The translations under genes were made by a program, and so were the position numbers. The notes below the pieces were generated by a model that was not told where the DNA came from, made no database searches, and saw only the letters and a list, made by a program, of their open reading frames with translations. A stretch of DNA of 64,000 bases. Source: Escherichia phage vB_EcoM_DalCa. The stretch lies in the sequence record NC_054908.1; one strand, written 5' to 3'. Below, in pieces: positions 49,820 to 64,000 of the stretch (its first letter is position 1; each line of letters starts with the position of its first letter).

Positions 49820-50737
49820 TCAAAATTCATTAATGCTATTAGTTAATTTAGAAAGACCCGCTTTTACAAAATATGAATAAATTTTGCCACGCGGTGGTAA
49901 TTTATATGAATTATAGTAATTCACAATGTTTGAAGCAATATTATCAGGAATATAATCAAAATCAATTAGAACTAAATTTTCTTTATAACGATTATATTCA
50001 GATTCTGTGAGAAGCACCTTAGCTTGTTCACGGTCATTAGCAATAGCTTCAACGATTGAAGTTTTCATTGAAGGAGTTCGTTCACCTTCAACTTTGGTAA
50101 ACCAAAAGTCAGATCGTACTTTAACTGAAGCAACGTTATCCTTTTTGTCACCTTTAAGGATTTTAGTCATACAGTCAATTTCAGCAGAACCGCTTTTAAT
50201 TTTAACCCATTTCTTATGCATCGGTGACCATTGCTTAACATTTGGGTATTTGTGAAGCTGTGTAAAGTCACCATCCGACGAAATGATTAAAATCTTATGT
50301 CCTTCTAAAGAGAACTTTTTAACAAGAACAGCAATATGGTCATCTGCTTCATACTTATCAATATCCATAACAATGTATGGCATATAAGCTTTCAATTCAT
50401 CTATAACTTTATGACTGGATTCAAAATAACCTTCCCAGTCCCAAGTAGATTCTTCTCGTGCTTTTCCACGGTTTTTCTTATAATAATAAGCGAAATCACG
50501 ACGCCAGTATCCAGATTTCGCGTTATCAATACACAGTACAATTTTAGTGTATCCAAGCGTTTTTGCTTTTTTGACATTAAACTTAATTGAGTTCAATATC
50601 AAATGACGAACCATTGATAAATTAATTTTTTCTTTATCTGGGAAGTTTACCAGAGCAGTTGAAAGAGCAATTTGACTAAAGTCAATAAAGCAAATTCCTT
50701 CTTTGTAATCTTCATCCAGCATCATTTCTAAATCCAT
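49820..50737 (-). CDS. rnh: RNase H (5'-3' exonuclease / flap endonuclease)
   Basis: About 305 aa from the ATG at 50737; position before gene 34. Confidence 0.85.
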   Translation of the reverse strand: MDLEMMLDEDYKEGICFIDFSQIALSTALVNFPDKEKINLSMVRHLILNSIKFNVKKAKTLGYTKIVLCIDNAKSGYWRRDFAYYYKKNRGKAREESTWDWEGYFESSHKVIDELKAYMPYIVMDIDKYEADDHIAVLVKKFSLEGHKILIISSDGDFTQLHKYPNVKQWSPMHKKWVKIKSGSAEIDCMTKILKGDKKDNVASVKVRSDFWFTKVEGERTPSMKTSIVEAIANDREQAKVLLTESEYNRYKENLVLIDFDYIPDNIASNIVNYYNSYKLPPRGKIYSYFVKAGLSKLTNSINEF

Positions 50738-50799
50738 ATGAACCTCGTTCAATTAGTGAGATTTCTATTATATACTATCTAAATCTTAAAGTAAACAGG

Positions 50800-50807
50800 T
50801 ATAAATA
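50800..50807 (+). promoter_or_regulatory. Late promoter box TATAAATA for gene 34
   Basis: Exact TATAAATA about 35 bp upstream of the gene 34 ATG. Confidence 0.6.
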
Positions 50808-50841
50808 CTTATTATTGAAAACACAATAGGAGCCCGGGAGA

Positions 50842-53800
50842 ATGGCCGAGATTAAAAGAAAGTTCAGAGCAGAAGATGGTCTGGACGCAGGTGGCGATAA
50901 AATAATCAACGTAGCTTTAGCTGATCGTACCGTAGGAACTGACGGTGTTAACGTTGATTACTTAATTCAAGAAAACACAGTTCAGCAATATGATCCAACT
51001 CGTGGATATTTAAAAGATTTTGTAATCATTTATAATAATCGTTTTTGGGCAGCAACGGATAATATTCCAAAACCTGCTGGAAATTTTAATAGAATTCGTT
51101 GGAAAGCATTACGTACTGATGCTGTATATACAACCGTATCATCTGGACCGTATCAATTAAAATCCGGAGAAGCAATTTCAGTAGATACATCAGTTGGTAA
51201 TGACATTGAGTTTACTTTACCACCTTCTCCGCTCGATGGAGAAACAGTAATAATTCAAGATATCGGTGGAAAACCTGGTATAAATCAGGTTAAAATAAGT
51301 TCTTCAAATCAGAGCATTGTTAATTTTAGAGGTGAACAAGTACGTTCAGTTTTAATGACTCATCCAAAGTCACAGATGGTATTCATTTTTAATAATCGTT
51401 TGTGGCAAATGTATATTGCTGATTATAGCAGAGAAGCTGCGATTGTTACTCCATCGACTGCGTATCAAGCACAATCTAATGATTTTATCGTACGTAGATT
51501 TACTTCTGCTGCACCAATTAATGTTAAACTTCCGAGATTTGCTAATCATGGCGATATTATTAATTTCGTTGATTTAGATAAACTGAATCCACTTTATCAT
51601 ACAATTGTTACTACATACGATGAAACGACTTCAGTACAAGAAGTTGGAACTCATTCCATTGAAGGCCGTACATCGATTGACGGTTTCTTGATGTTTGACG
51701 ATAATGAGAAATTGTGGAGATTGTTTGACGGGGATAGTAAAGCACGTTTACGCATTATAACAACTAATTCAAATATTCGTCCAAATGAAGAAGTCATGGT
51801 ATTTGGCGCGAATAATGGAACAACCCAAACAATTGAACTTCAGCTTCCGACTGATATTTCTGTTGGTGATACTGTTAAAATTTCCATGAATTACATGAGA
51901 AAAGGACAAACAGTTAAAATCAAAGCTGCTGGTGAAGATAAAATTGCTTCTTCAGTTCAATTGCTGCAATTCCCAAAACGTTCAGAATATCCGCCTGAAG
52001 CTGAATGGGTAACAGTTCAAGAATTAGTTTTTAACGGTGAAACTAATTATGTTCCAGTTTTACAACTTGCTTATATAGAAGATTCTGATGGAAAATACTG
52101 GGTTGTACAGCAAAACGTTCCAACAGTTGAAAGAGTCGATTCTTTAAATAATTCTACTAGAGCAAGATTAGGCGTAATTGCTTTAGCTACACAAGCTCAA
52201 GCAAATGCTGATTTAGAAAATTCTCCGCAAAAAGAATTGGCAATTACTCCAGAAACGTTAGCTAATCGTACTGCTACTGAAACTCGCAGAGGTATTGCAA
52301 GAATAGCAACTACTGCTCAAGTGAATCAGAACACCACATTCTCTTTTGCAGATGACCTTATCATCACTCCTAAAAAGCTGAATGAAAGAACTGCTACAGA
52401 AACTCGCAGAGGTGTCGCTGAAATTGCTACGCAGCAGGAAACTAATACAGGTACTGATGATACTACAATCATTACTCCTAAAAAGCTTCAAGCTCGCCAA
52501 GGTTCTGAATCATTATCTGGTATTGTAACTTTTGTATCTACCGCAGGAGCTACTCCAGCTTCTAGTCGTGAATTAAATGGTACGAATGTTTATAATAAAA
52601 ACACTAATAATTTAGTTGTTTCACCTAAAGCTTTGGATCAGTATAAAGCTACTCCAACGCAACAAGGCGCAGTAATTTTAGCAGTTGAAAGTGAAGTAAT
52701 TGCTGGACAAAGCCAAGAAGGATGGGCAAATGCGGTTGTAACGCCAGAAACGTTACATAAAAAGACATCAACTGACGCAAGAATTGGTTTAATTGAAATT
52801 GCTACACAAAGTGAAGTTAATACAGGAACTGATTATACTCGCGCAGTCACTCCTAAAACTTTAAATGACCGTAGAGCAACTGAAAGTTTAAGTGGTATAG
52901 CTGAAATTGCTACGCAAGTTGAATTCGACGCAGGCGTCGACGATACTCGTATCTCTACACCATTAAAAATTAAAACCAGATTTAATAGTACTGATCGTAC
53001 TTCTGTTGTTGCTCTATCTGGATTAGTTGAATCAGGAACTCTCTGGGACCATTATACCCTTAATATTCTTGAAGCAAATGAGACACAGCGTGGTACACTT
53101 CGTGTAGCTACACAAGTTGAAGCTGCTGCAGGAACATTAGATAATGTTTTAATAACTCCTAAAAAGCTTTTAGGTACTAAATCTACTGAAGCACAGGAAG
53201 GTGTCATTAAAGTTGCAACTCAGTCTGAAACTGTGGCTGGAACGTCAGCAAATACTGCTGTATCTCCAAAAAATTTAAAATGGATTGTGCAGAGTGAACC
53301 TACTTGGGCAGCGACTACTGCGATAAGAGGTTTTGTTAAAACTTCGTCTGGTTCAATTACATTCGTTGGTAATGATACAGCTGGTTCAACACAGCCATTA
53401 GAATCATATGAGAAAAATGGTTATGCAGTATCACCATATGAATTAAATCGCGTATTAGCAAATTATTTGCCATTAAAAGCAAAAGCCGTAGATAGTAATT
53501 TATTAGATGGTCTAGATTCGCTCCAGTTCATTCGTAGGGACATTGCACAAACAGTTAATGGTTCACTAACCTTAACCCAACAAACGAATCTGGGTGCCCC
53601 TCTTGTATCATCTAGTACTGCTACATTCGGTGGATCAGTTTCAGCAAATAGTACATTAACTATTTCTAATACTGGAACGGCAACTCGTCTGATTTTTGAG
53701 AAAGGACCTCAAACTGGAACAAACCCGGCTCAAACGATGACAGTCAGAGTGTGGGGAAATCAATTTAGTGGGGAATCAGACACAACACGTTCTACCGTAT

Positions 53801-54711
53801 TTGAAGTTAGTGATGAAACGTCTAGTCATTTTTATTCTCAGCGTAATAAAGCTGGAAATATAACATTTAATATCAACGGTACAGTAACACCGATAAATGT
53901 TAATGCTTCAGGAACATTGAATGCAAATGGTGTAGCAACATTTGGTAATTCAGTCACTGCAACTGGTGAAATTATTTCTCGAAGCGCAAATGCTTTCCGT
54001 GCTATTAACGGAAATTATGGTTTCATTGTTCGCAATGATGGATCAGTAACGAATTTTATGCTTACTGCATCGGGTGATCAGACTGGTGGATTTAATGGAT
54101 TACGTCCTTTAGCTATTAATAATGCATCTGGCCAAGTAACGATTGGTGAAAGCTTAATCATTGCCAAAGGTGCTACTATAAATTCAGGCGGTTTGACTGT
54201 TAACTCGAGAATTCGTTCTCAGGGCACTAAAACATCTGATTTATACACCCGCGCTCCAACATCTGATACTGTAGGATTCTGGTCAATTGATATTAACGAT
54301 TCAGCCACTTATAACCAGTTCCCGGGTTATTTTAAAATGGTTGAAAAAACTAATGAAGTGACTGGACTTCCATACTTAGAACGTGGTGAAGAAGTTAAAT
54401 CTCCTGGTACATTGACTCAGTTTGGTAACACACTTGATTCACTTTACCAAGATTGGATTACTTATCCAACGACCCCAGAAGCACGTACCACTCGCTGGAC
54501 ACGTACATGGCAGAAAACCAAAAACTCTTGGTCAAGTTTTGTTCAGGTATTTGACGGAGGTAACCCTCCTCAACCTTCAGATATAGGAGCGATCCCATCT
54601 GATAATGGAATAATAGGTAATCTTACTATTCGCGATTTCTTGCGAATTGGTAATGTTCGCATTATTCCTGACCCAGTGAATAAAACTGTTAAATTTGAGT
54701 GGATTGAATAA
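50842..54711 (+). CDS. 34: Long tail fibre proximal subunit gp34
   Basis: 1289 aa; TATAAATA at 50800-50807; repeated ATETRRG.A.IAT motifs. Confidence 0.9.
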   Translation: MAEIKRKFRAEDGLDAGGDKIINVALADRTVGTDGVNVDYLIQENTVQQYDPTRGYLKDFVIIYNNRFWAATDNIPKPAGNFNRIRWKALRTDAVYTTVSSGPYQLKSGEAISVDTSVGNDIEFTLPPSPLDGETVIIQDIGGKPGINQVKISSSNQSIVNFRGEQVRSVLMTHPKSQMVFIFNNRLWQMYIADYSREAAIVTPSTAYQAQSNDFIVRRFTSAAPINVKLPRFANHGDIINFVDLDKLNPLYHTIVTTYDETTSVQEVGTHSIEGRTSIDGFLMFDDNEKLWRLFDGDSKARLRIITTNSNIRPNEEVMVFGANNGTTQTIELQLPTDISVGDTVKISMNYMRKGQTVKIKAAGEDKIASSVQLLQFPKRSEYPPEAEWVTVQELVFNGETNYVPVLQLAYIEDSDGKYWVVQQNVPTVERVDSLNNSTRARLGVIALATQAQANADLENSPQKELAITPETLANRTATETRRGIARIATTAQVNQNTTFSFADDLIITPKKLNERTATETRRGVAEIATQQETNTGTDDTTIITPKKLQARQGSESLSGIVTFVSTAGATPASSRELNGTNVYNKNTNNLVVSPKALDQYKATPTQQGAVILAVESEVIAGQSQEGWANAVVTPETLHKKTSTDARIGLIEIATQSEVNTGTDYTRAVTPKTLNDRRATESLSGIAEIATQVEFDAGVDDTRISTPLKIKTRFNSTDRTSVVALSGLVESGTLWDHYTLNILEANETQRGTLRVATQVEAAAGTLDNVLITPKKLLGTKSTEAQEGVIKVATQSETVAGTSANTAVSPKNLKWIVQSEPTWAATTAIRGFVKTSSGSITFVGNDTAGSTQPLESYEKNGYAVSPYELNRVLANYLPLKAKAVDSNLLDGLDSLQFIRRDIAQTVNGSLTLTQQTNLGAPLVSSSTATFGGSVSANSTLTISNTGTATRLIFEKGPQTGTNPAQTMTVRVWGNQFSGESDTTRSTVFEVSDETSSHFYSQRNKAGNITFNINGTVTPINVNASGTLNANGVATFGNSVTATGEIISRSANAFRAINGNYGFIVRNDGSVTNFMLTASGDQTGGFNGLRPLAINNASGQVTIGESLIIAKGATINSGGLTVNSRIRSQGTKTSDLYTRAPTSDTVGFWSIDINDSATYNQFPGYFKMVEKTNEVTGLPYLERGEEVKSPGTLTQFGNTLDSLYQDWITYPTTPEARTTRWTRTWQKTKNSWSSFVQVFDGGNPPQPSDIGAIPSDNGIIGNLTIRDFLRIGNVRIIPDPVNKTVKFEWIE

Positions 54712-54719
54712 GAGGTATT

Positions 54720-55835
54720 ATGGAAAAATTTATGGCAGAGTTTGGACAAGGATATGTCCAAACACCATTTTTATCGGAAAGCAATTCAGTAAGATATAAA
54801 ATAAGCATAGCGGGTTCTTGCCCGCTTTCTACTGCGGGGCCATATGTTAAATTTCAGGATAATCCCGTTGGAAATCAAACATTTAGTGCAGGTCTTCATT
54901 TAAGAGTTTTTGACCCTTCTACGGGAGCATTAGTTGATAGCAAGTCATATGCTTTTTCTGCTTCAAACAATACAACATCTGCCGCTTTTGTCAGTTTCAT
55001 GAATTCTTTGTCAAACAATAGACTTGTTGCTATATTAACTAGCGGAAAGGTTAATTTTCCTCCTGAAGTGGTATCTTGGTTAAGGGGAGCAGGAACTTCA
55101 GTTTTTCCATCAGATTCAGTATTGTCAAGATTTGACGTATCATATGCTGCTTTTTATACTTCTTCTAAAAGAGCTATTGCATTAGAGCATGTTAAACTAA
55201 GTAATAGAAAAAGCACAGATGATTATCAAACTATTTTAGATGTTGTATTTGATAGTTTAGAAGACGTCGGAGCGACAGGATTTCCAAAAAGAACTTATGA
55301 AAGTGTAGAGCAATTCATGTCAGCAGTTGGTGGAACTAATAACGAAATTGCGCGATTGCCAACTTCAGCTGCTATAAGTAAACTTTCTGACTATAATTTA
55401 ATTCCTGGTGATGTTCTTTATCTTAAAGCACAGTTATATGCTGATGCTGATTTACTTGATCTTGGAACTACAAACATATCCATTCGTTTTTATGATGCAT
55501 CAAATGGATATATTTCCTCGACCCAAGCTGAGTTTACTGGGCAAGCTGGGTCTTGGGAATTAAAAGAAGACTATGTAGTTGTTCCAGAAAACGCCGTAGG
55601 ATTTACGATATATGCACAAAGAACTGCTCAAGCAGGTCAAGGCGGCATGAGAAATTTAAGTTTTTCTGAAGTATCAAGAAATGGCGGCATTTCAAAACCT
55701 GCCGAATTTGGCGTCAACGGTATTCGCGTTAATTATGTCTGTGAATCGGCTTCACCTCCAGATATAATGGTACTTCCTACACAAGCCTCTTCTAAAACTG
55801 GCAAAGTGTTTGGACAGGAATTTAGAGAAGTTTAA
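54720..55835 (+). CDS. 35: Long tail fibre hinge protein gp35
   Basis: 371 aa; order 34-35-36-37. Confidence 0.85.
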   Translation: MEKFMAEFGQGYVQTPFLSESNSVRYKISIAGSCPLSTAGPYVKFQDNPVGNQTFSAGLHLRVFDPSTGALVDSKSYAFSASNNTTSAAFVSFMNSLSNNRLVAILTSGKVNFPPEVVSWLRGAGTSVFPSDSVLSRFDVSYAAFYTSSKRAIALEHVKLSNRKSTDDYQTILDVVFDSLEDVGATGFPKRTYESVEQFMSAVGGTNNEIARLPTSAAISKLSDYNLIPGDVLYLKAQLYADADLLDLGTTNISIRFYDASNGYISSTQAEFTGQAGSWELKEDYVVVPENAVGFTIYAQRTAQAGQGGMRNLSFSEVSRNGGISKPAEFGVNGIRVNYVCESASPPDIMVLPTQASSKTGKVFGQEFREV

Positions 55836-55839
55836 ACTG

Positions 55840-55865
55840 AGGGAGCCTTCGGGTTCCCTTTTTCT
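55840..55865 (+). terminator. Terminator after gene 35
   Basis: GGGAGCC-ttcg-GGTTCCC followed by TTTTTCTTT. Confidence 0.6.
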
Positions 55866-55866
55866 T

Positions 55867-55874
55867 TATAAATA
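55867..55874 (+). promoter_or_regulatory. Late promoter box TATAAATA for gene 36
   Basis: Exact TATAAATA between the gene 35 terminator and gene 36. Confidence 0.6.
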
Positions 55875-55897
55875 ATATTAAAATAAAGGGGCATATA

Positions 55898-56548
55898 ATG
55901 GCTGATTTAAAAGTAGGTTCAACTGTGGGTGGATCTGTCATTTGGCATCAAGGAAATTTTCCATTGAATTCAGCCGGTGACGATGTACTCTACAAATCAT
56001 TTAAAATATATTCAGAATATAATAAACCGCAGGCAGCTGATAACGATTTCGTTTCTAAAGCTAATGGTGGTACTTACGCCGGTCCAATTACTATTAATTA
56101 CGGGGTAAATAGTTATCTTCAATTAAGTAATAATGAAACCCCTATCCGAATTCGTTCTGGTGGCGGCACTGGTAATACTCTTGTAGTTGGCGGCTCTTCC
56201 GGTGGTATTAGTTTTAGACCTGCAGGTAGTGAAATCACTACTGGACAAATTACTATTACGCCAGAAGGTTTGACAACATTTACCAGGGCTGTAACGGCTC
56301 CATCGGTAACTGTTACATCTACTCCTTCCGCAGCATCTGATGTTACTCGCAAAGATTATGTTGATGGAGCAATAAATACTGTTACAGCAAATGCAAACTC
56401 TAGGGTATTACGCTCTGGAGACACTATGACAGGAAATTTAACTGCGCCAAACCTTTTTTCACAGAATCCTGCATCTCAACCTTCACACGTTCCACGATTT
56501 GACCAAATCGTAATTAAGGATTCTGTTCAAGATTTCGGCTATTATTAA
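55898..56548 (+). CDS. 36: Long tail fibre distal connector gp36
   Basis: 216 aa; terminator and TATAAATA upstream. Confidence 0.85.
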
Positions 56549-56556
56549 GAGGACTT

Positions 56557-59523
56557 ATGGCTACTTTAAAACAAATACAATTTAAAAGAAGTAAAACTGC
56601 AGGTCAACGTCCTGCTGCTTCAGTATTAGCCGAAGGTGAATTGGCTATAAACTTAAAAGATAAAACAATTTTCACAAAAGATGACTCAGGTAGTGTTATA
56701 GAATTAGGTTTAAAATATGGAGGAACAATTGATGGTTCTTTAACTGTTAATGGAAACATAATTGGAAATTTAACAGGTAACGCTGCAACTGCAACGAAAT
56801 TAAAAACAGCACGAAAAATTAATGGTATATCCTTTGATGGGTCAAAAGATATCACGCTAACTCCATCTGACATAAATGTCAATAGCACAACGTTTATAAA
56901 AAATAACGGCGAATTACCTGTTGATGCTAATTTAGATGAGTATGGGCCTGTTGAAGAATATCTTGGAGTTTGGTCGAAAGCAACTTCAACCAACGCTCAA
57001 CCAGCAAATAAATTTCCAGAAGAAAATGCTGTAGGTGTTCTAGAAGTATTTGTGGCCGGTCAATTTGCTGGTACTCAGAGATATACAACTAGATACGGAA
57101 ATGTTTATATTCGTTCCTTGACTGCTACATGGAACGGAGTAAACGGTCCGTGGAGTGCGTGGCGAAATATTCAATCTGGTACTCGTCCACTGTCAACAAC
57201 GATTGATCTTAATGATCTAGGAGGCGCTGAACACCTTGGTTTGTGGCGAAATAGTTCAAATTCCATTGCTACCTTTGACAGAAATTTCCCAGAAGAAGGA
57301 TCGTCCGCTCAAGGACTTTTAGAAGTATATGAAGGTGGAAACTATTCTCGCACACAGAGATATACGACCAGATTTGGTGTTGTTTATACTCGTTGTCTTG
57401 CTGCTGCGTGGGATGCTTCTGCGCCTAAATGGGGACCTTGGCAACAAGTCGGTAATGTCACACCGGCGACTTTCTATGACGGAGATCTGAATGATTTTAA
57501 AACTCCTGGGTTATATAATATTTTAGGCACTGATGCCGTTATTAACTGTCCTACCGGTGAAGGTTTACCAGCCGTTATTGTTGGTTTGCTGGAAGTTAAA
57601 CAGCGTGCTTCTGGTGGTGCTATTTTCCAAAAATTTACTACTGCCGGAACGGGTGCAACTACTCGCGATCGTATTTTTGAGCGTGCATATACTGGTGGTG
57701 TGTGGGGTGCATGGAACGAAGTATATACATCTTATTCCCTGCCAATTACTTTGGGTATGGGTGGTATTAAAACTCAATTAGCGGAGTTAGATTGGCAAAC
57801 CTTTGATTTTGTCCCTGGTAGTATGTTTAGTGTTCCTTTGAACAAAATAAAGAATATGCCAGCAAATATGGATTGGGGCACGATTGATGGAAACCTGGTT
57901 ATGTTTTCCGTTGGTCCTAGCGAACACACTAGCACAGGACGTACTGTTCAGATTTGGCGCGGCACCGTATCCCAGACAAACTACCGTTATTTTGTCGTTC
58001 GTGTGTTCGGTAATTCTGGAAATAGAACTTGCACAGTTCGTCGTGTTGTTCTTGAAGACGGATCACATACTTGGACTGCTAAACAAGATTTTAATGGCGC
58101 AGTTAACTTTAACTCTACTGTTAACCTTAATAACACTACCACATTTAAAACAGAAGTTAAATTTCGCTCATTGAATGCATTCCGTATGTATGGCGGAAAA
58201 TTTGGTACATTTTTACGTAATGATGGAGAGAGTCTTTATATTCTTTCCACCGACGAAGATGATCAAGATGGAAACTTTAATACAAATAGACCTTTCCGTT
58301 ATGAATTAAGAACTGGTGATGTTACTTTGGGTGGTGCTAGTGGTGCTAACGTTTTAAAATTAAAACGTGATTCTCTCACCGCATTTTTTGGCGGTGATAT
58401 TAACATTAAAGGCATGATGACTTTTGACGCCGGACGTTTAGGATCACGAGATTATTTTAAATTTAACCATTGGGGTGATAGTAATAATGCGCGTGATAAC
58501 ATTATTCAGTTAGAAGACAGCAAAGGCGCTCATTTTTCCACTGAACGTACTTTAGCGACTGGTGCAATTAAGACTAAATTTTTTGGTGAAATTGAATCCG
58601 ATGGTAAATTGGTTATTAAACGTCCGGGTGATTCTATTGTATTATCAACAACTGCTAGTAATTCTTTGCATATTCGCGGTGATATAGACGGGACTGGTAA
58701 CTGGTATATTGGTAAAGGTGGTGCTGATAATGGATTAGCGTTCTATAGTTATGCTACTAATGCTGGTGTATACATTACAAACGCAGGAGATATCTCGCTA
58801 AGTCCAAAGGGTGCCGAAATGGCTCAGGTCAATAACGTTCGATTATATGTTCATGGTGAACGTTGGACCGCTAGTCAACCAGGTGATTGGGGCAGTCAGT
58901 GGCAAGTGGAAGCGCCAATATTCGTCGATCATGGTTATGTTGGACCAGATAGCTATTATCCAATTATTAAAGGAAGAAGTGTAATCACCAATCAAGGGTT
59001 TGTAACTGCCGTCGATCTTGGTATTCGTCGTGTCCCTAACAATTGGGGGCAAGCAATTATTCGTGTTGGATCTGCAGAGGCATCGCCAGCGGCTGGACAC
59101 CCTAACGCGGTATTTGAATTTCATTACGACGGTACTTTCTATTCTCCTGGTAATGGTAACTTTAACGATGTGTATATTCGTTCCGATGGTCGTCTTAAGA
59201 TTAATAAAAAAGAGCTAGAAAACGGAGCACTTGAAAAAGTATGCCGACTGAAAGTTTATACATACGATAAGGTTAAGTCTATTAAAGATCGTAGTGTTAT
59301 TAAACGTGAAGTTGGTATTATTGCTCAGGATCTTGAAAAAGAATTACCGGAAGCTGTGTCTAAAGTTGAAGTTGATGGATCTGATGTTCTGACAATTTCT
59401 AACTCCGCTGTGAATGCTCTTTTAATTAAGGCTATCCAAGAAATGAGCGAAGAAATTAAAGAATTAAAAACGCCTTTCTTCACTAAAATTGCTCGCAAAA
59501 TTAGTAAATATTTTAAATTCTAA
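56557..59523 (+). CDS. 37: Long tail fibre distal subunit gp37 with C-terminal self-cleaving chaperone-like domain
   Basis: 988 aa; N-terminus [19 protein letters not shown] typical of fibre proteins; SDGRLK motif about 113 aa from the C-terminus. Confidence 0.9.
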
Positions 59524-59529
59524 CAACAA

Positions 59530-59548
59530 GGGGGCAACGCCCCCTTTG
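59530..59548 (+). terminator. Hairpin after gene 37 (GGGGGC-aac-GCCCCC)
   Basis: 6 bp GC stem followed by TTTGG; just upstream of the gene 38 RBS. Confidence 0.5.
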
Positions 59549-59558
59549 GAGATAAATT

Positions 59559-60359
59559 ATGGCAGTAGTTGGTGTTCCTGGTTGGATTGGTAGTTCATCC
59601 GTAAATGAAACAGGACAACGATGGATGAGTCAAGCGGCTGGTCAATTAAGATTGGGTGTTCCTTGCTGGATGAGTCAATTTGCAGGTCGCTCACGAGAAA
59701 TTATTCATACACTTGGAGCAGACCATAACTTCAATGGTCAATGGTTCCGAGATAGATGTTTTGAGGCCGGTAGTGCACCTATAGTGTTTAATATTACAGG
59801 TGATTTAGTATCATATTCTAAAGATGTTCCTTTATTCTTCATGTACGGGGATACGCCTAATGAATATGTTGTTCTTAATATTCATGGTGGTGTTCATATG
59901 TGGGGTCGTGGTGGTAATGGTGGATACACTCACTCGGGAGGCGACGGTAACGGTACACAAGGCGGTCATGTTATTCAAAATGATATCGGTGGACGGCTTC
60001 GTATTTGGAACTACGGTGTTATAGCTGCTGGCGGTGGCGGCGGTGGTGGTATTGCATATCGTCCACACTCAGGGGCAAACTGGCAAGATATCGGTGGCGG
60101 TGGTGGTCGACCTTTCGGTGGCGCTGGCGGTGGCGGTTATTCCGGTGGTGCTGCTTCGTATGAAGGTCCGGGTGGTGGTTATGACTATGGTAACGCACAC
60201 TCCGGCGCAGGTGGTAATGCTGGTGCTGCTGGTCAGAATGCATGGTCTGACGGCGGTAAAGTTCTTAAAGTTGGTGTTGGTGGTGCGTCTGGTCATGCAG
60301 TGTTTGGGTCTTCTCCAACTTGGGGTGCTGTTGGAACAATTTACGGACCAAGAGTATAA
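59559..60359 (+). CDS. 38: Receptor-recognising adhesin gp38, T2-type with glycine-rich motifs
   Basis: 266 aa; several poly-Gly stretches (GGGGGGG, GGGGG, GGAGGGG) separated by variable segments. Confidence 0.85.
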
Positions 60360-60389
60360 TTTGAATAAATATCCTTAAAAGGAGGGTCT

Positions 60390-61046
60390 ATGGCAGCACC
60401 TAGAATATCATTTTCGCCCTCTGATATTCTGTTTGGTGTTCTAGATCGCTTGTTCAAAGATAACGCTACCGGGAAGGTTCTTGCTTCCCGAGTAGCTGTC
60501 GTAATTCTTTTATTTATGATGGCGATTGTTTGGTATAGGGGAGATAGTTTCTTTGAGTACTATAAGCAATCAAAGTATGAAACATACAGTGAAATTATTG
60601 AAAAGGAAAGAAATGCACGCTTTGAATCTGTCGCCCTGGAACAACTCCAGATAGTTCATATATCATCTGAGGCAGACTTTAGTGCGGTGTATTCTTTCCG
60701 CCCTAAAAACTTAAACTATTTTGTTGATATTATAGCATATGAAGGAAAATTACCTTCAACAATAAGTGAAAAATCACTTGGAGGATATCCTGTTGATAAA
60801 ACTATGGATGAATATACAGTTCATTTAAATGGACGTCATTATTATTCCGACTCAAAATTTGCTTTTTTACCAACTAAAAAGCCTACTCCCGAAATAAACT
60901 ACATGTACAGTTGTCCATATTTTAATTTGGATAATATCTATGCTGGAACAATAACCATGTACTGGTATAGAAATGATCATATAAGTAATGACCGCCTTGA
61001 ATCAATATGTGCTCAGGCGGCCAGAATATTAGGAAGGGCTAAATAA
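60390..61046 (+). CDS. t: Holin T
   Basis: 218 aa; single N-terminal TM segment and large periplasmic domain; position after 38. Confidence 0.9.
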   Translation: MAAPRISFSPSDILFGVLDRLFKDNATGKVLASRVAVVILLFMMAIVWYRGDSFFEYYKQSKYETYSEIIEKERNARFESVALEQLQIVHISSEADFSAVYSFRPKNLNYFVDIIAYEGKLPSTISEKSLGGYPVDKTMDEYTVHLNGRHYYSDSKFAFLPTKKPTPEINYMYSCPYFNLDNIYAGTITMYWYRNDHISNDRLESICAQAARILGRAK

Positions 61047-61319
61047 TTATTTGTTCGTATACATCTCTAGATATCGATATACACCCTCAAAACCCTCGTT
61101 GAATTCGTCGATGAGGGTTTTCTTATCTTCTTGAGTTAATTCAGAAACAATTTTACGGAATGAATTCTGATTTAACTTTCTACCTTCATGCGTTACTCCA
61201 ATCTCATTCAGAAATGCAATAAAATTAGCACGATTCTCAACAATATCTTCTCTGGAAAATTTAATCAAAATAGACGCAACAGTAATAATTTCACGAACTG
61301 TATCAATGTTTTTATTCAT
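61047..61319 (-). CDS. asiA: Anti-sigma-70 factor AsiA
   Basis: 90 aa; TTTACA-17-TATTAT promoter upstream. Confidence 0.9.
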   Translation of the reverse strand: MNKNIDTVREIITVASILIKFSREDIVENRANFIAFLNEIGVTHEGRKLNQNSFRKIVSELTQEDKKTLIDEFNEGFEGVYRYLEMYTNK

Positions 61320-61331
61320 TAACTATACCAC

Positions 61332-61484
61332 TCAATTAGTTGACTTTGTTATAATATCATCAGACACTTGATTTGTAAACTGGTCTGTGTTATTTTCTTC
61401 AAAAATTTTTTCTACGAATTCCTTGAACGACTCGCGTTCCTGAGCTACATTATGCTCGATTACCATTTCAAGATTATGACTCAT
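61332..61484 (-). CDS. Candidate 50 aa ORF (MSHNLEMVIEHNVAQERESF...) not in ORF track
   Basis: Its ATG overlaps the arn stop codon (ATGA coupling); contains the asiA promoter in its 3' part. Confidence 0.4.
   Translation of the reverse strand: MSHNLEMVIEHNVAQERESFKEFVEKIFEENNTDQFTNQVSDDIITKSTN
61351..61379 (-). promoter_or_regulatory. Early sigma-70 promoter for asiA (TTTACA-17-TATTAT)
   Basis: Good -35/-10 with 17 bp spacer about 30 bp upstream of the asiA ATG. Confidence 0.5.
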
Positions 61485-61759
61485 TCGAAATAATCTTCAA
61501 TTTCGTAATCATGGACATAAATCATTATAGTTTTTAATACATCATCAATACTTTTTCCTGGAGCTGGAATTACGTAAAAATATCCTGCTTTTGAGAGGTC
61601 TTTATAAGTTCCAATCAAGAAATCATTATTCTCAAGATGTAACTCTTCAACTAATTCATTGACAATTGAATGGTATAGGTTTGGTAGAAACTTATATAGC
61701 TTTTCTAGAATATCAATTTTGATTGTGTATTGAACCACGGACTGAGAATCAATAATCAT
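61481..61759 (-). CDS. arn: Arn-like anti-restriction protein
   Basis: 92 aa acidic protein; position between asiA and motA. Confidence 0.75.
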   Translation of the reverse strand: MIIDSQSVVQYTIKIDILEKLYKFLPNLYHSIVNELVEELHLENNDFLIGTYKDLSKAGYFYVIPAPGKSIDDVLKTIMIYVHDYEIEDYFE

Positions 61760-61842
61760 AGACCTTCCCCTTATGTTTCTGTTTGCGATTAGATTCTTTA
61801 AACGCTTTCTTCTTATCCTTATGAACAGAAGCTTTATTAAAA

Positions 61843-62061
61843 TTATGCTTTGCGACTAAATTGTTCATAGTGCTGAATTACCTCTCTTAAACATTTGCAT
61901 GTGAATGAAAACTTTTTAGCTACACCACATTCAAATATATGTTCTCTTAAATCACGTGTATCAGTATATCCCATCTCAACAATAAAATGCCTTATTAGAT
62001 TTTTATCTTTATCATTGAGAGAATTAAAATAATCAGATTTTGAATTAATTTCCCTGGCCAA
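61843..62061 (-). CDS. Hypothetical small protein (arn.x block)
   Basis: 72 aa ORF. Confidence 0.5.
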   Translation of the reverse strand: MAREINSKSDYFNSLNDKDKNLIRHFIVEMGYTDTRDLREHIFECGVAKKFSFTCKCLREVIQHYEQFSRKA

Positions 62062-62341
62062 ATTGAATCACCTTCAGTTGACGTTTTAGCTCTTTTATCA
62101 TCTCTTCGTTCATCGCAATATAAAGATCGCGTAAAGCAGGTTTTATCATTCCATTTATTGGGGAACTAAATGGGCATACATAATCTTTTCCTACGAGCTT
62201 TTTAGTGAATTCCATATCACAAAACTGAAATGCAGGTTCATTAGCATAAATTCCCCAATTGGTTGACATCATTTTATTGGCATATTCCAATGCTTGGATT
62301 TGATTAGTAATTCCATCAATTTGAAACTTTTTAATATTCAT
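62045..62341 (-). CDS. Hypothetical protein (arn.x block)
   Basis: 98 aa ORF. Confidence 0.55.
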   Translation of the reverse strand: MNIKKFQIDGITNQIQALEYANKMMSTNWGIYANEPAFQFCDMEFTKKLVGKDYVCPFSSPINGMIKPALRDLYIAMNEEMIKELKRQLKVIQFGQGN

Positions 62342-62808
62342 TAGTAAAGGTCCTCGGAGTAAAGTTCTTTTTCACTACCACCACGTTCAATACGCACTTG
62401 TCCAGCGTAAGTTGCAATAATCATTGCTTCTTCACGTGTCCAGTAATTGCTATACTGGTCAATAAATCCTTGGTCTTCACCACAAACATGGTCTGATACA
62501 AGTTTATCACTTACCTGGTCAAGAACTTCAGCCATATCTTTAGAATAATGACGAGCACCAGGAATAACCAGAGTCCCACCATCTTTTAACTTAAAGCGGT
62601 TGGCTGCACACACAATTCGACGTTGATATTTTTCATTATTGTTCCAATGAGCTACTTGCCAACAGATTTCAGGAACCTCTTCTAAAACATCCTCTTCCGT
62701 ATATTCGGTGTAGTCGCCATAGGCCTGTAATTTAGCTGCTAGACTTTCTGGAGTTTCACGTAATAAAGCCAGGTCTAATAATTCAAGACGCTCTTTGAAG
62801 GTTTTCAT
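62341..62808 (-). CDS. Hypothetical protein (arn.x block)
   Basis: 155 aa ORF; ATGA overlap with the downstream ORF. Confidence 0.6.
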
Positions 62809-62960
62809 TTGGTTTCCTCAACACTTTTAATTTTTATAGCTTGTTTAGAACTTTCAAAGCATTGACAATATACTCTTACCGCATCAAACTGGTTGGCCGC
62901 TTTAAGATGGACTACACCTTCGTCGTTATAAAATTCTACGACAATTTTAAATGTTTTCAT
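62805..62960 (-). CDS. Candidate 51 aa ORF ([20 protein letters not shown]...) not in ORF track
   Basis: ATGA overlap with the upstream 109 aa ORF stop and with the downstream 155 aa ORF start. Confidence 0.5.
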
Positions 62961-63286
62961 TTAAACCATCCTTTAATACGTTGCCATAAAGTTTTCTGTT
63001 GAGCTTTGTTAACACCAATTGAACGAATAACTGGTTGAGATTCCTGAAATTCTTTATAATCAGCAAGGTAAATTTCGTAAGCTGCATCCGTAAATGAACT
63101 TATCGCTGCCATAAAATTATTGCGAATACCTACTGGAGCATCTTTACTTTCACGAATAATCATGTATTTACCAGTCTTAATCTTTACGATAGTTCCAAGA
63201 TAAGCTCCATGGTACCAGATGTCCCAACCCTCTTGAGTAGGTTCTACACAACGACGAAGTTCATTGACAATTTCTAACTTGTTCAT
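62957..63286 (-). CDS. Hypothetical protein downstream of motA
   Basis: 109 aa ORF. Confidence 0.55.
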   Translation of the reverse strand: MNKLEIVNELRRCVEPTQEGWDIWYHGAYLGTIVKIKTGKYMIIRESKDAPVGIRNNFMAAISSFTDAAYEIYLADYKEFQESQPVIRSIGVNKAQQKTLWQRIKGWFK

Positions 63287-63296
63287 TATTTATTCC

Positions 63297-63932
63297 TCAC
63301 AGTTCAGATGCTACAGTGATTACAGCTTCAATGTTTTCTGCCGAGCGTTTAATGTCAAGATACACATTACCGTTTTTAGCGATTTTACATGACATTCCGA
63401 TATCAGTAAATTTCTGAATATGATGTTCCATCATTTTGTATCCAAAAATTCGCATATTTCCATTATTGTTAATTTCAAAATTACGAATTCCGTGAGTGCG
63501 TTTTTCTAAAATGGCAAGATAATTACTACGATAAGTTTCAACCTTTTTAAGAACAAATCCATTTTCATCTAAAAGTTTTAACATGAGGTCTTTATCTTCT
63601 TCCATATCAGAAGTAATCTCACGAGCTTTACGAGTTGCTCGTTTTTTCAGTAGTTCAGGAGCATTTTCCTGTGCATATAAAGTTGCCGCATTTGAAATAA
63701 TATCCTGAGCTTCACCAGTAATGATTAATCCATCACCAGATTTCTCCACCAGGCCTTTTTTAATCAATACCCCAATATTACTATTAACTACTGCGTTACC
63801 TAAATCTGGATGCACCTCACGAACTTCTGCGGCTGTAATGAAATCTTTCTTAGCAATGGTAATTAAAATCGCAGCAGTTTTTTCATTCAGAACATCGTTA
63901 GAAGCTTTGATGATGTAAGTTACTTTAGACAT
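63297..63932 (-). CDS. motA: MotA middle-promoter transcription activator
   Basis: 211 aa, same length as T4 MotA; position. Confidence 0.9.
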   Translation of the reverse strand: MSKVTYIIKASNDVLNEKTAAILITIAKKDFITAAEVREVHPDLGNAVVNSNIGVLIKKGLVEKSGDGLIITGEAQDIISNAATLYAQENAPELLKKRATRKAREITSDMEEDKDLMLKLLDENGFVLKKVETYRSNYLAILEKRTHGIRNFEINNNGNMRIFGYKMMEHHIQKFTDIGMSCKIAKNGNVYLDIKRSAENIEAVITVASEL

Positions 63933-64000
63933 TTTAATCTCCGTTTCAGTTCATTTATTTGATAGGTCTATAGTATCATGTTTAAAGCAGAAGTAAACAC

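Follow-up and report, generated by a model that had tools for sequence, protein, structure and literature searches.

Gene 38 of a T-even tail-fibre block very probably encodes an Ox2-type gp38 adhesin, with OmpA as its predicted receptor

Gene 38 in the 64,000-nt stretch of DNA analysed here (the window) encodes, with a probability that we put at about 0.9, an Ox2-type gp38 adhesin of the T2-type family, for which OmpA is the predicted receptor. An earlier sequence-only reading had taken the product to be the T2-type glycine-rich adhesin, and the Pfam GP38 match, 98.9% identity to the gp38 of Ox2 and the predicted fold all agree with this. The gene is an intact ATG-to-TAA open reading frame of 266 aa at 59559-60359 (+), stop codon included, with a GGAG Shine-Dalgarno sequence at 59548-59551, and it lies directly downstream of gene 37 (order 37-38-t). 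The gene order 34-35-36-37-38-t-asiA matches that of T-even phages and the block is canonical:

Gene 34, 50842-54711, T-even late tail-fibre block.
Gene 35, 54720-55835, T-even late tail-fibre block.
Gene 36, 55898-56548, T-even late tail-fibre block.
Gene 37, 56557-59523 (+), 988-aa distal long-tail-fibre subunit of the T2 type, platform for gp38.
C-terminal intramolecular chaperone of gp37 (aa 876-988), 59182-59523 (+), with a predicted cut before S876 (SDGRLK).
Intergenic RNA hairpin, 59528-59546 (+), core GGGGGC-AAC-GCCCCC at 59530-59544, then TTT.
Gene 38, 59559-60359 (+), probable T2/Ox2-type receptor-recognising adhesin, from the Pfam, phrog_2056 and Ox2 matches.
Holin gene t, 60390-61046, matching Pfam Phage_holin_T at 1.9e-117.
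asiA, minus strand, after holin t.

Copies of the T4-type late promoter motif TATAAATA precede gene 34 (at 50800) and gene 36 (at 55867-55874, +), and no copy lies between 55875 and 59558. The copy at 55867 is the nearest upstream of gene 38, from which we infer that genes 36-37-38 are probably co-transcribed. Across the whole 64,000-nt window the motif is present in 18 copies, 13 of them on the + strand, against 8 +/- 3 expected. The hairpin lies downstream of the stop codon of gene 37 and upstream of the ribosome-binding site of gene 38, and its stable stem folds with a minimum free energy of -12.9 kcal/mol (z = -2.57). The homologous site in phage WFK is annotated as a 'putative terminator'; the hairpin of the window was not called by the terminator scan, and its TTT tail is weak evidence of termination. 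Attenuation is one possible role, and stabilisation or processing of the mRNA another. Scans of the whole window (1-64000) for Rfam families and tRNA genes gave nothing at threshold.

Both halves of the family assignment are covered by full-length domain matches. Residues 47-266 match Pfam GP38 (PF05268) at 1.1e-67 and 228.5 bits (cut-off 25) over model positions 1-218 of 218, and residues 1-42 match Gp38_N (PF21721) at 3.2e-19 and 69.1 bits (cut-off 25) over positions 1-40 of 40. In PHROG the match is to phrog_2056, 'tail fiber protein; host specificity', at 8.9e-110 over positions 1-267 of 267, and no NCBIfam model matches either gp38 or gp37. Only two solved structures have sequence similarity to gp38, the PP01 receptor-binding domain 9v85 (2.6e-65), which was identified as that of PP01 gp38 via PMC12892980, and S16 gp38, 6f45_D (3.8e-43).

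The partner protein is of the corresponding type. In Pfam, gp37 of the window carries Gp34_trimer and Peptidase_S74 domains and no Collar domain, whereas T4 gp37 has Collar and Phage_fiber domains and lacks S74. The Peptidase_S74 'chaperone of endosialidase' domain occupies aa 876-934. There is a single SDxRxK motif in the protein, SDGRLK at 876, and by analogy with S16 gp37, whose chaperone (6f45_A) aligns with that of the window (SDRRIK vs SDGRLK), the chaperone is predicted to be cut off before S876, which would free a fragment of 113 aa. This size is near that of the roughly 120 residues that were reportedly found, in work of Drexler from 1986, to be removed from T2 gp37.

An AlphaFold2 model of gp38, built from a 92-sequence alignment, has a pLDDT of 87.9 and a pTM of 0.81. 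When it was compared to the PDB with Foldseek, 9v85 (E 6e-27, TM 0.88) and 6f45_D (E 1.5e-21, TM 0.81) were recovered, and every match beyond these two had E>3. The protein is thus predicted to adopt the beta-helix and polyglycine-II sandwich seen in 6F45 chain D and 9V85. The glycine blocks of the model are confidently assigned as 'coil' by DSSP, with a pLDDT of 92-98 over most blocks; polyglycine-II helices show up as 'coil' in DSSP. The first 14 residues fall below a pLDDT of 50, as expected without gp37. Three modules can be distinguished:

gp38 aa 1-46, 59559-59696 (+), N-terminal attachment module, Pfam Gp38_N, with W9, W22 and W37.
gp38 aa 47-110, 59697-59888 (+), conserved beta-helix core of short beta-strands in the model, pLDDT 93-96.
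gp38 aa 111-266, 59889-60356 (+), specificity domain of glycine motifs (predicted polyglycine-II sandwich) and hypervariable loops.

The tryptophans of the attachment module are conserved in 91 (W9), 90 (W22) and 75 (W37) of the 92 homologs, and in the S16 structure the gp37 trimer takes up these three residues in equivalent pockets (PMC6851490). The core is 89-97% identical to that of most Tequatrovirus and Mosigvirus adhesins compared.

The glycine richness of gp38 is real, extreme and far beyond chance. Glycine makes up 69 of its 266 residues (25.9%), rising to 35.9% in residues 111-266, while the median among the 44 window ORFs of at least 150 aa is 5.8% and the second highest value 11.1%. 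Each of the four poly-glycine motifs that had been quoted from the sequence is there letter for letter, at aa 156-167, 178-199, 203-211 (GPGGGYDYG) and 216-226; a first block (G116-G121, G135-G136) and a last one (~242-250) had been missed. The (near-)invariant glycine columns of the 92-sequence alignment are 116-121, 135-136, 158-163, 179-187, 216-225 and 242-250. The second quoted motif spans a stretch, aa 190-197, that varies across the family and happens to be glycine-rich in this allele. The proposed alternation of glycine motifs with variable segments is correct, with five segments rather than three (variability scores from the 92 sequences):

Variable segment 1, aa 123-132, 59925-59954 (+), score 2.12.
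Variable segment 2, aa 165-178, 60051-60092 (+), score 2.72, holding N174.
Variable segment 3, aa 190-197, GGGGYSGG, 60126-60149 (+), score 1.78, holding G193.
Variable segment 4, aa 207-215, GYDYGNAHS, 60177-60203 (+), score 2.29.
Variable segment 5, aa 226-241, 60234-60281 (+), score 2.37.

Segment 2 is the counterpart of R165-A170, the contact stretch in 'type 1' OmpA binders (PMC12032242). This architecture of glycine-rich motifs and hypervariable segments (GRM/HVS) has already been published (PMC3157838; PMC6851490). Trojet 2011 described 5 motifs and 4 variable segments (PMC3157838), and the S16 structure has 10 polyglycine-II helices and five distal loops (PMC6851490).

OmpA is quite likely to be the primary receptor of this gp38, a prediction that draws on near-identity to Ox2 gp38, a classical OmpA-binding adhesin (PMC12032242, PMC6499177), and on the identity of the loops to those of FL08 and AV119. 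The latter two phages have been shown experimentally to depend on OmpA and are 'type 1' OmpA binders (PMC12032242). Over the 57 variable-loop residues, gp38 is 91-93% identical to FL08 and AV119 and 9-19% identical to T6 (Tsx), M1, FL18, Bp7 and Ac3, of which FL18 is a 'type 2' OmpA binder (PMC12032242). In the comparison with Ox2 and T6, both among the alignments that the sequence-only reading had proposed, 263 of 266 residues are identical in Ox2 and the loops of T6 fall in the above low range. In the literature searched there is no published receptor assignment for this allele, for example one linking ACG-C40 to OmpA. Host range had also been proposed to be determined at gp38. As a prediction this holds for the primary protein receptor and not for host range as a whole; host range is also shaped by the LPS core, which the gp12 short fibres recognise, and by variation in the OmpA loops (PMC12032242; bioRxiv 10.64898/2026.04.02.716166).

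Gene name and position have also to be set against what the protein itself looks like. A T4-type gp38 would be a non-structural chaperone that folds gp37 and is absent from the virion, and T4 gp38 (NP_049864) is like the protein of the window in its gene name and its position between genes 37 and t, and in nothing else. The T4 protein has 183 aa rather than 266, is not found in the virion (PMC6851490), and works with a gp37 that has its own receptor-binding tip (PMC6851490), whereas gp37 of the window is without the Collar-containing tip of the T4 type and has its own predicted cleavable chaperone. In BLASTP the best alignment between T4 gp38 and the gp38 of the window covers 7 residues at E=3.7, and T4 gp38 belongs to phrog_105, 'tail fiber assembly', with no PHROG family common to the two proteins. 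Alignment to the T4-type chaperone, which would have contradicted the earlier assignment, was therefore not found. A chaperone of the T4 type is ruled out by BLASTP, PHROG and the domain content of gp37, and its probability is negligible. Scarcely any weight falls either on the idea of a low-complexity or repeat artefact, or of a decaying gene, in place of a folded functional domain in the glycine-rich stretch. Glycine runs of up to seven and the use of GGT for 48 of the 69 glycine codons could give that impression, but the reading frame is intact, at least six viable phages that were isolated independently have a 100% identical C-domain, no columns of the family alignment are more conserved than the glycine blocks, and the model is both confident over most of these blocks and a match to crystal structures.

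A closer competitor accepts the T2-type adhesin and holds that its primary receptor is not OmpA, or that a second one (LPS core, OmpC, Tsx) is needed. It is improbable in our view. A single loop substitution in gp38, Q206L in RB68, switches the receptor from OmpF to OmpW (bioRxiv 10.64898/2026.04.02.716166), and both loop residues in which gp38 is unlike Ox2, N174 and G193, lie in variable segments 2 and 3. Dependence on more than a single host factor has also been reported for Ox2 and RB32, in the case of RB32 on OmpA and LPS (PMC3157838). However, N174 and G193 are common to the OmpA-dependent FL08 and AV119 (PMC12032242) and occur in all natural isolates of the allele that were fetched, and the loops are far from those of binders of other receptors. 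The Ox2-type adhesin directed to OmpA is thus the reading that we carry forward.

On that reading, adsorption could proceed through a series of steps. Family membership, domain layout, the pattern of variable and conserved segments, the predicted fold, the T2-type gp37 and the near-identity to Ox2 come from the present analysis, whereas proteolysis of gp37, the docking ratio, the polyglycine-II geometry and the binding of OmpA are taken over from published work with homologs. Genes 36-37-38 would be expressed late. Trimerisation of gp37 would be guided by its own C-terminal intramolecular chaperone, which would then be cut off before S876 to expose a tip that binds gp38. One gp38 monomer would be docked on the tip of the gp37 trimer (a 3:1 arrangement) via aa 1-46, with W9, W22 and W37 inserted into three equivalent hydrophobic pockets. 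Residues 111-266 would fold as a beta-helix with a polyglycine-II sandwich of the conserved glycine motifs, with the five hypervariable segments presented as distal loops. Binding of these loops to extracellular loops of an outer-membrane protein, with OmpA as the predicted partner, would then determine which primary receptor is used.

The modules of this locus have different affinities. For the attachment module (aa 1-46), identity is 100% with T6, 96% with M1 and only 50-57% with FL08 and AV119, and the variable loops reverse this pattern, being near FL08/AV119 and far from T6 and M1. All 156 C-terminal residues are shared (100% identity) with ACG-C40, MLP2, Nami, EcNP1, ESh29, EC.W13-3 and EC.W14-2; in ACG-C40, MLP2, Nami, EcNP1 and ESh29 the N-terminal and middle modules differ by a few substitutions. 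The DNA of Nami is 83% identical in aa 47-110 and 98.7% in the C-domain. The next group, at ~84% C-domain identity, includes RB32, wV7, KIT03 and SH7. Recombinational shuffling of modules at this locus has been described previously (PMC3157838).

Two further observations concern exchange around the gene. In the Mosigvirus WFK (MK373775.1), which is of another genus, the region corresponding to 59889-60359 has 97.4% protein identity and 94.3% DNA identity to the window, and the N-terminal module hardly aligns (70% identity over 63% of the module). This indicates that the receptor-binding module has been exchanged across genera. In ACG-C40 and ECML-134 the distal shaft of gp37, aa ~732-875 (58750-59181), is essentially unrelated to that of the window, with 7-8% of it aligning, and the window's last 11 residues before SD, the chaperone type and the gp38 allele are kept.

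Some database entries related to gp38 deserve caution. 'Pseudomonas phage PsgM02F' (OR584013.1), with Pseudomonas coronafaciens pv. garcae as listed host, has a gp38 that is 99.6% identical to that of the window, and its 14-kb tail-fibre region is 96.9% identical to the window (50000-64000). Because an OmpA-type coliphage adhesin is found in a phage labelled as a Pseudomonas phage, this suggests that the host is mislabelled or that the sequence is a contaminant. The gp38 cluster P0047, with 155 members, is named 'receptor-recognizing protein [Bacillus cereus]' at NCBI, a label that probably derives from a contaminated assembly. In a 303-aa protein from an E. coli assembly (P0077), Peptidase_S74, Gp38_N and GP38 all lie within a single ORF. 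Here the C-terminus of gp37 seems to have been fused to gp38, perhaps due to a frameshift or to loss of the stop codon at the 37/38 junction.

Gene 38 of the window is an ordinary gene of a kind already described, and its specificity domain is identical in several sequenced phages. Identification of the gp38 allele allows the receptor of the phage to be predicted (OmpA, 'type 1' loops), the practical value of which is modest. Such predictions help to assemble cocktails whose phages do not share receptors and to foresee resistance that arises through ompA. Conceptually nothing is added, as the split between T2- and T4-type gp38, the motif and loop architecture and the prediction of receptors from phylogeny have all been published (Riede 1987; Trojet 2011, PMC3157838; Dunne 2018 via PMC6851490; PMC12032242; bioRxiv 10.64898/2026.04.02.716166).

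Among known systems, the two with solved structures share the layout of the gp38 described here and not its loops. The S16 gp37-gp38 tip (6F45) and PP01 gp38 (9V85) have the same order of attachment domain, beta-helix and glycine-rich sandwich. Both bind OmpC, their identity to gp38 of the window is 40% (S16) and ~60% (PP01), and their loop sequences are unrelated to those of the window. The gp38 proteins of FL08, AV119 and RB32 are closer, with C-domains 81-84% identical to that of the window. FL08 and AV119 also have in common with it the RxHSGA stretch, a proposed OmpA contact (PMC12032242). In the loops, the window has P169, D209 and N220 where FL08 and AV119 have V, Q and D; the last of these, D217 in FL08 numbering, has been proposed as a contact residue (PMC12032242).

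Ox2 is the nearest relative of all. Its gp38 (X05675, CAA29158) is equal in length at 266 aa, and five nucleotides differ between the two genes, two silently and three as missense changes from Ox2 to the window: AAG to AAC (K174N), CGT to GGT (R193G) and GTT to GCT (V257A). The C-domains are 98.1% identical and 55 of the 57 loop residues are equal, the exceptions being residues 174 in variable segment 2 and 193 in variable segment 3. N174 and G193 are also found in ESCO58, ACG-C40, Sf21, Nami, G29 and ECML-134, and in FL08 and AV119 in the alignment. Since all modern isolates checked carry this pair, it is the 1987 Ox2 sequence that is the outlier. K174 and R193 give Ox2 two additional positive charges in receptor loops 2 and 3, and the Ox2 laboratory line might carry adaptive loop mutations, in which case the host range of the natural allele would not be predictable from Ox2. 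We consider this unlikely yet worth naming, and it holds only if K174 and R193 are real rather than sequencing errors; a text search of the literature for the names of Ox2 host-range mutants gave no match. If true, the natural allele could recognise other OmpA loop variants or differ in its secondary dependence.

Beyond gp38 the likeness to Ox2 is patchy. The Ox2 DNA (X05675.1) is 100% identical over 59182-59888, from the gp37 chaperone to gp38 codon 110, and 95-99% identical in the flanks, with gene 37 upstream and t downstream as in the window. The C-terminal 251 aa of Ox2 gp37 are 96.8% identical, with 8 differences, located in aa 738-875; several bases differ at the start of the holin gene, and the length of the 37/38 intergenic region differs by 1 nt. 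Over the whole 14-kb tail-fibre region the best matches in the phage collection reach 96-97% identity, with none above about 97%. Given the differences in gp37 aa 738-875 and in the holin, and this ceiling on regional identity, the phage of the window is best described, on sequence comparison, as an Ox2-like mosaic that is not demonstrably Ox2.
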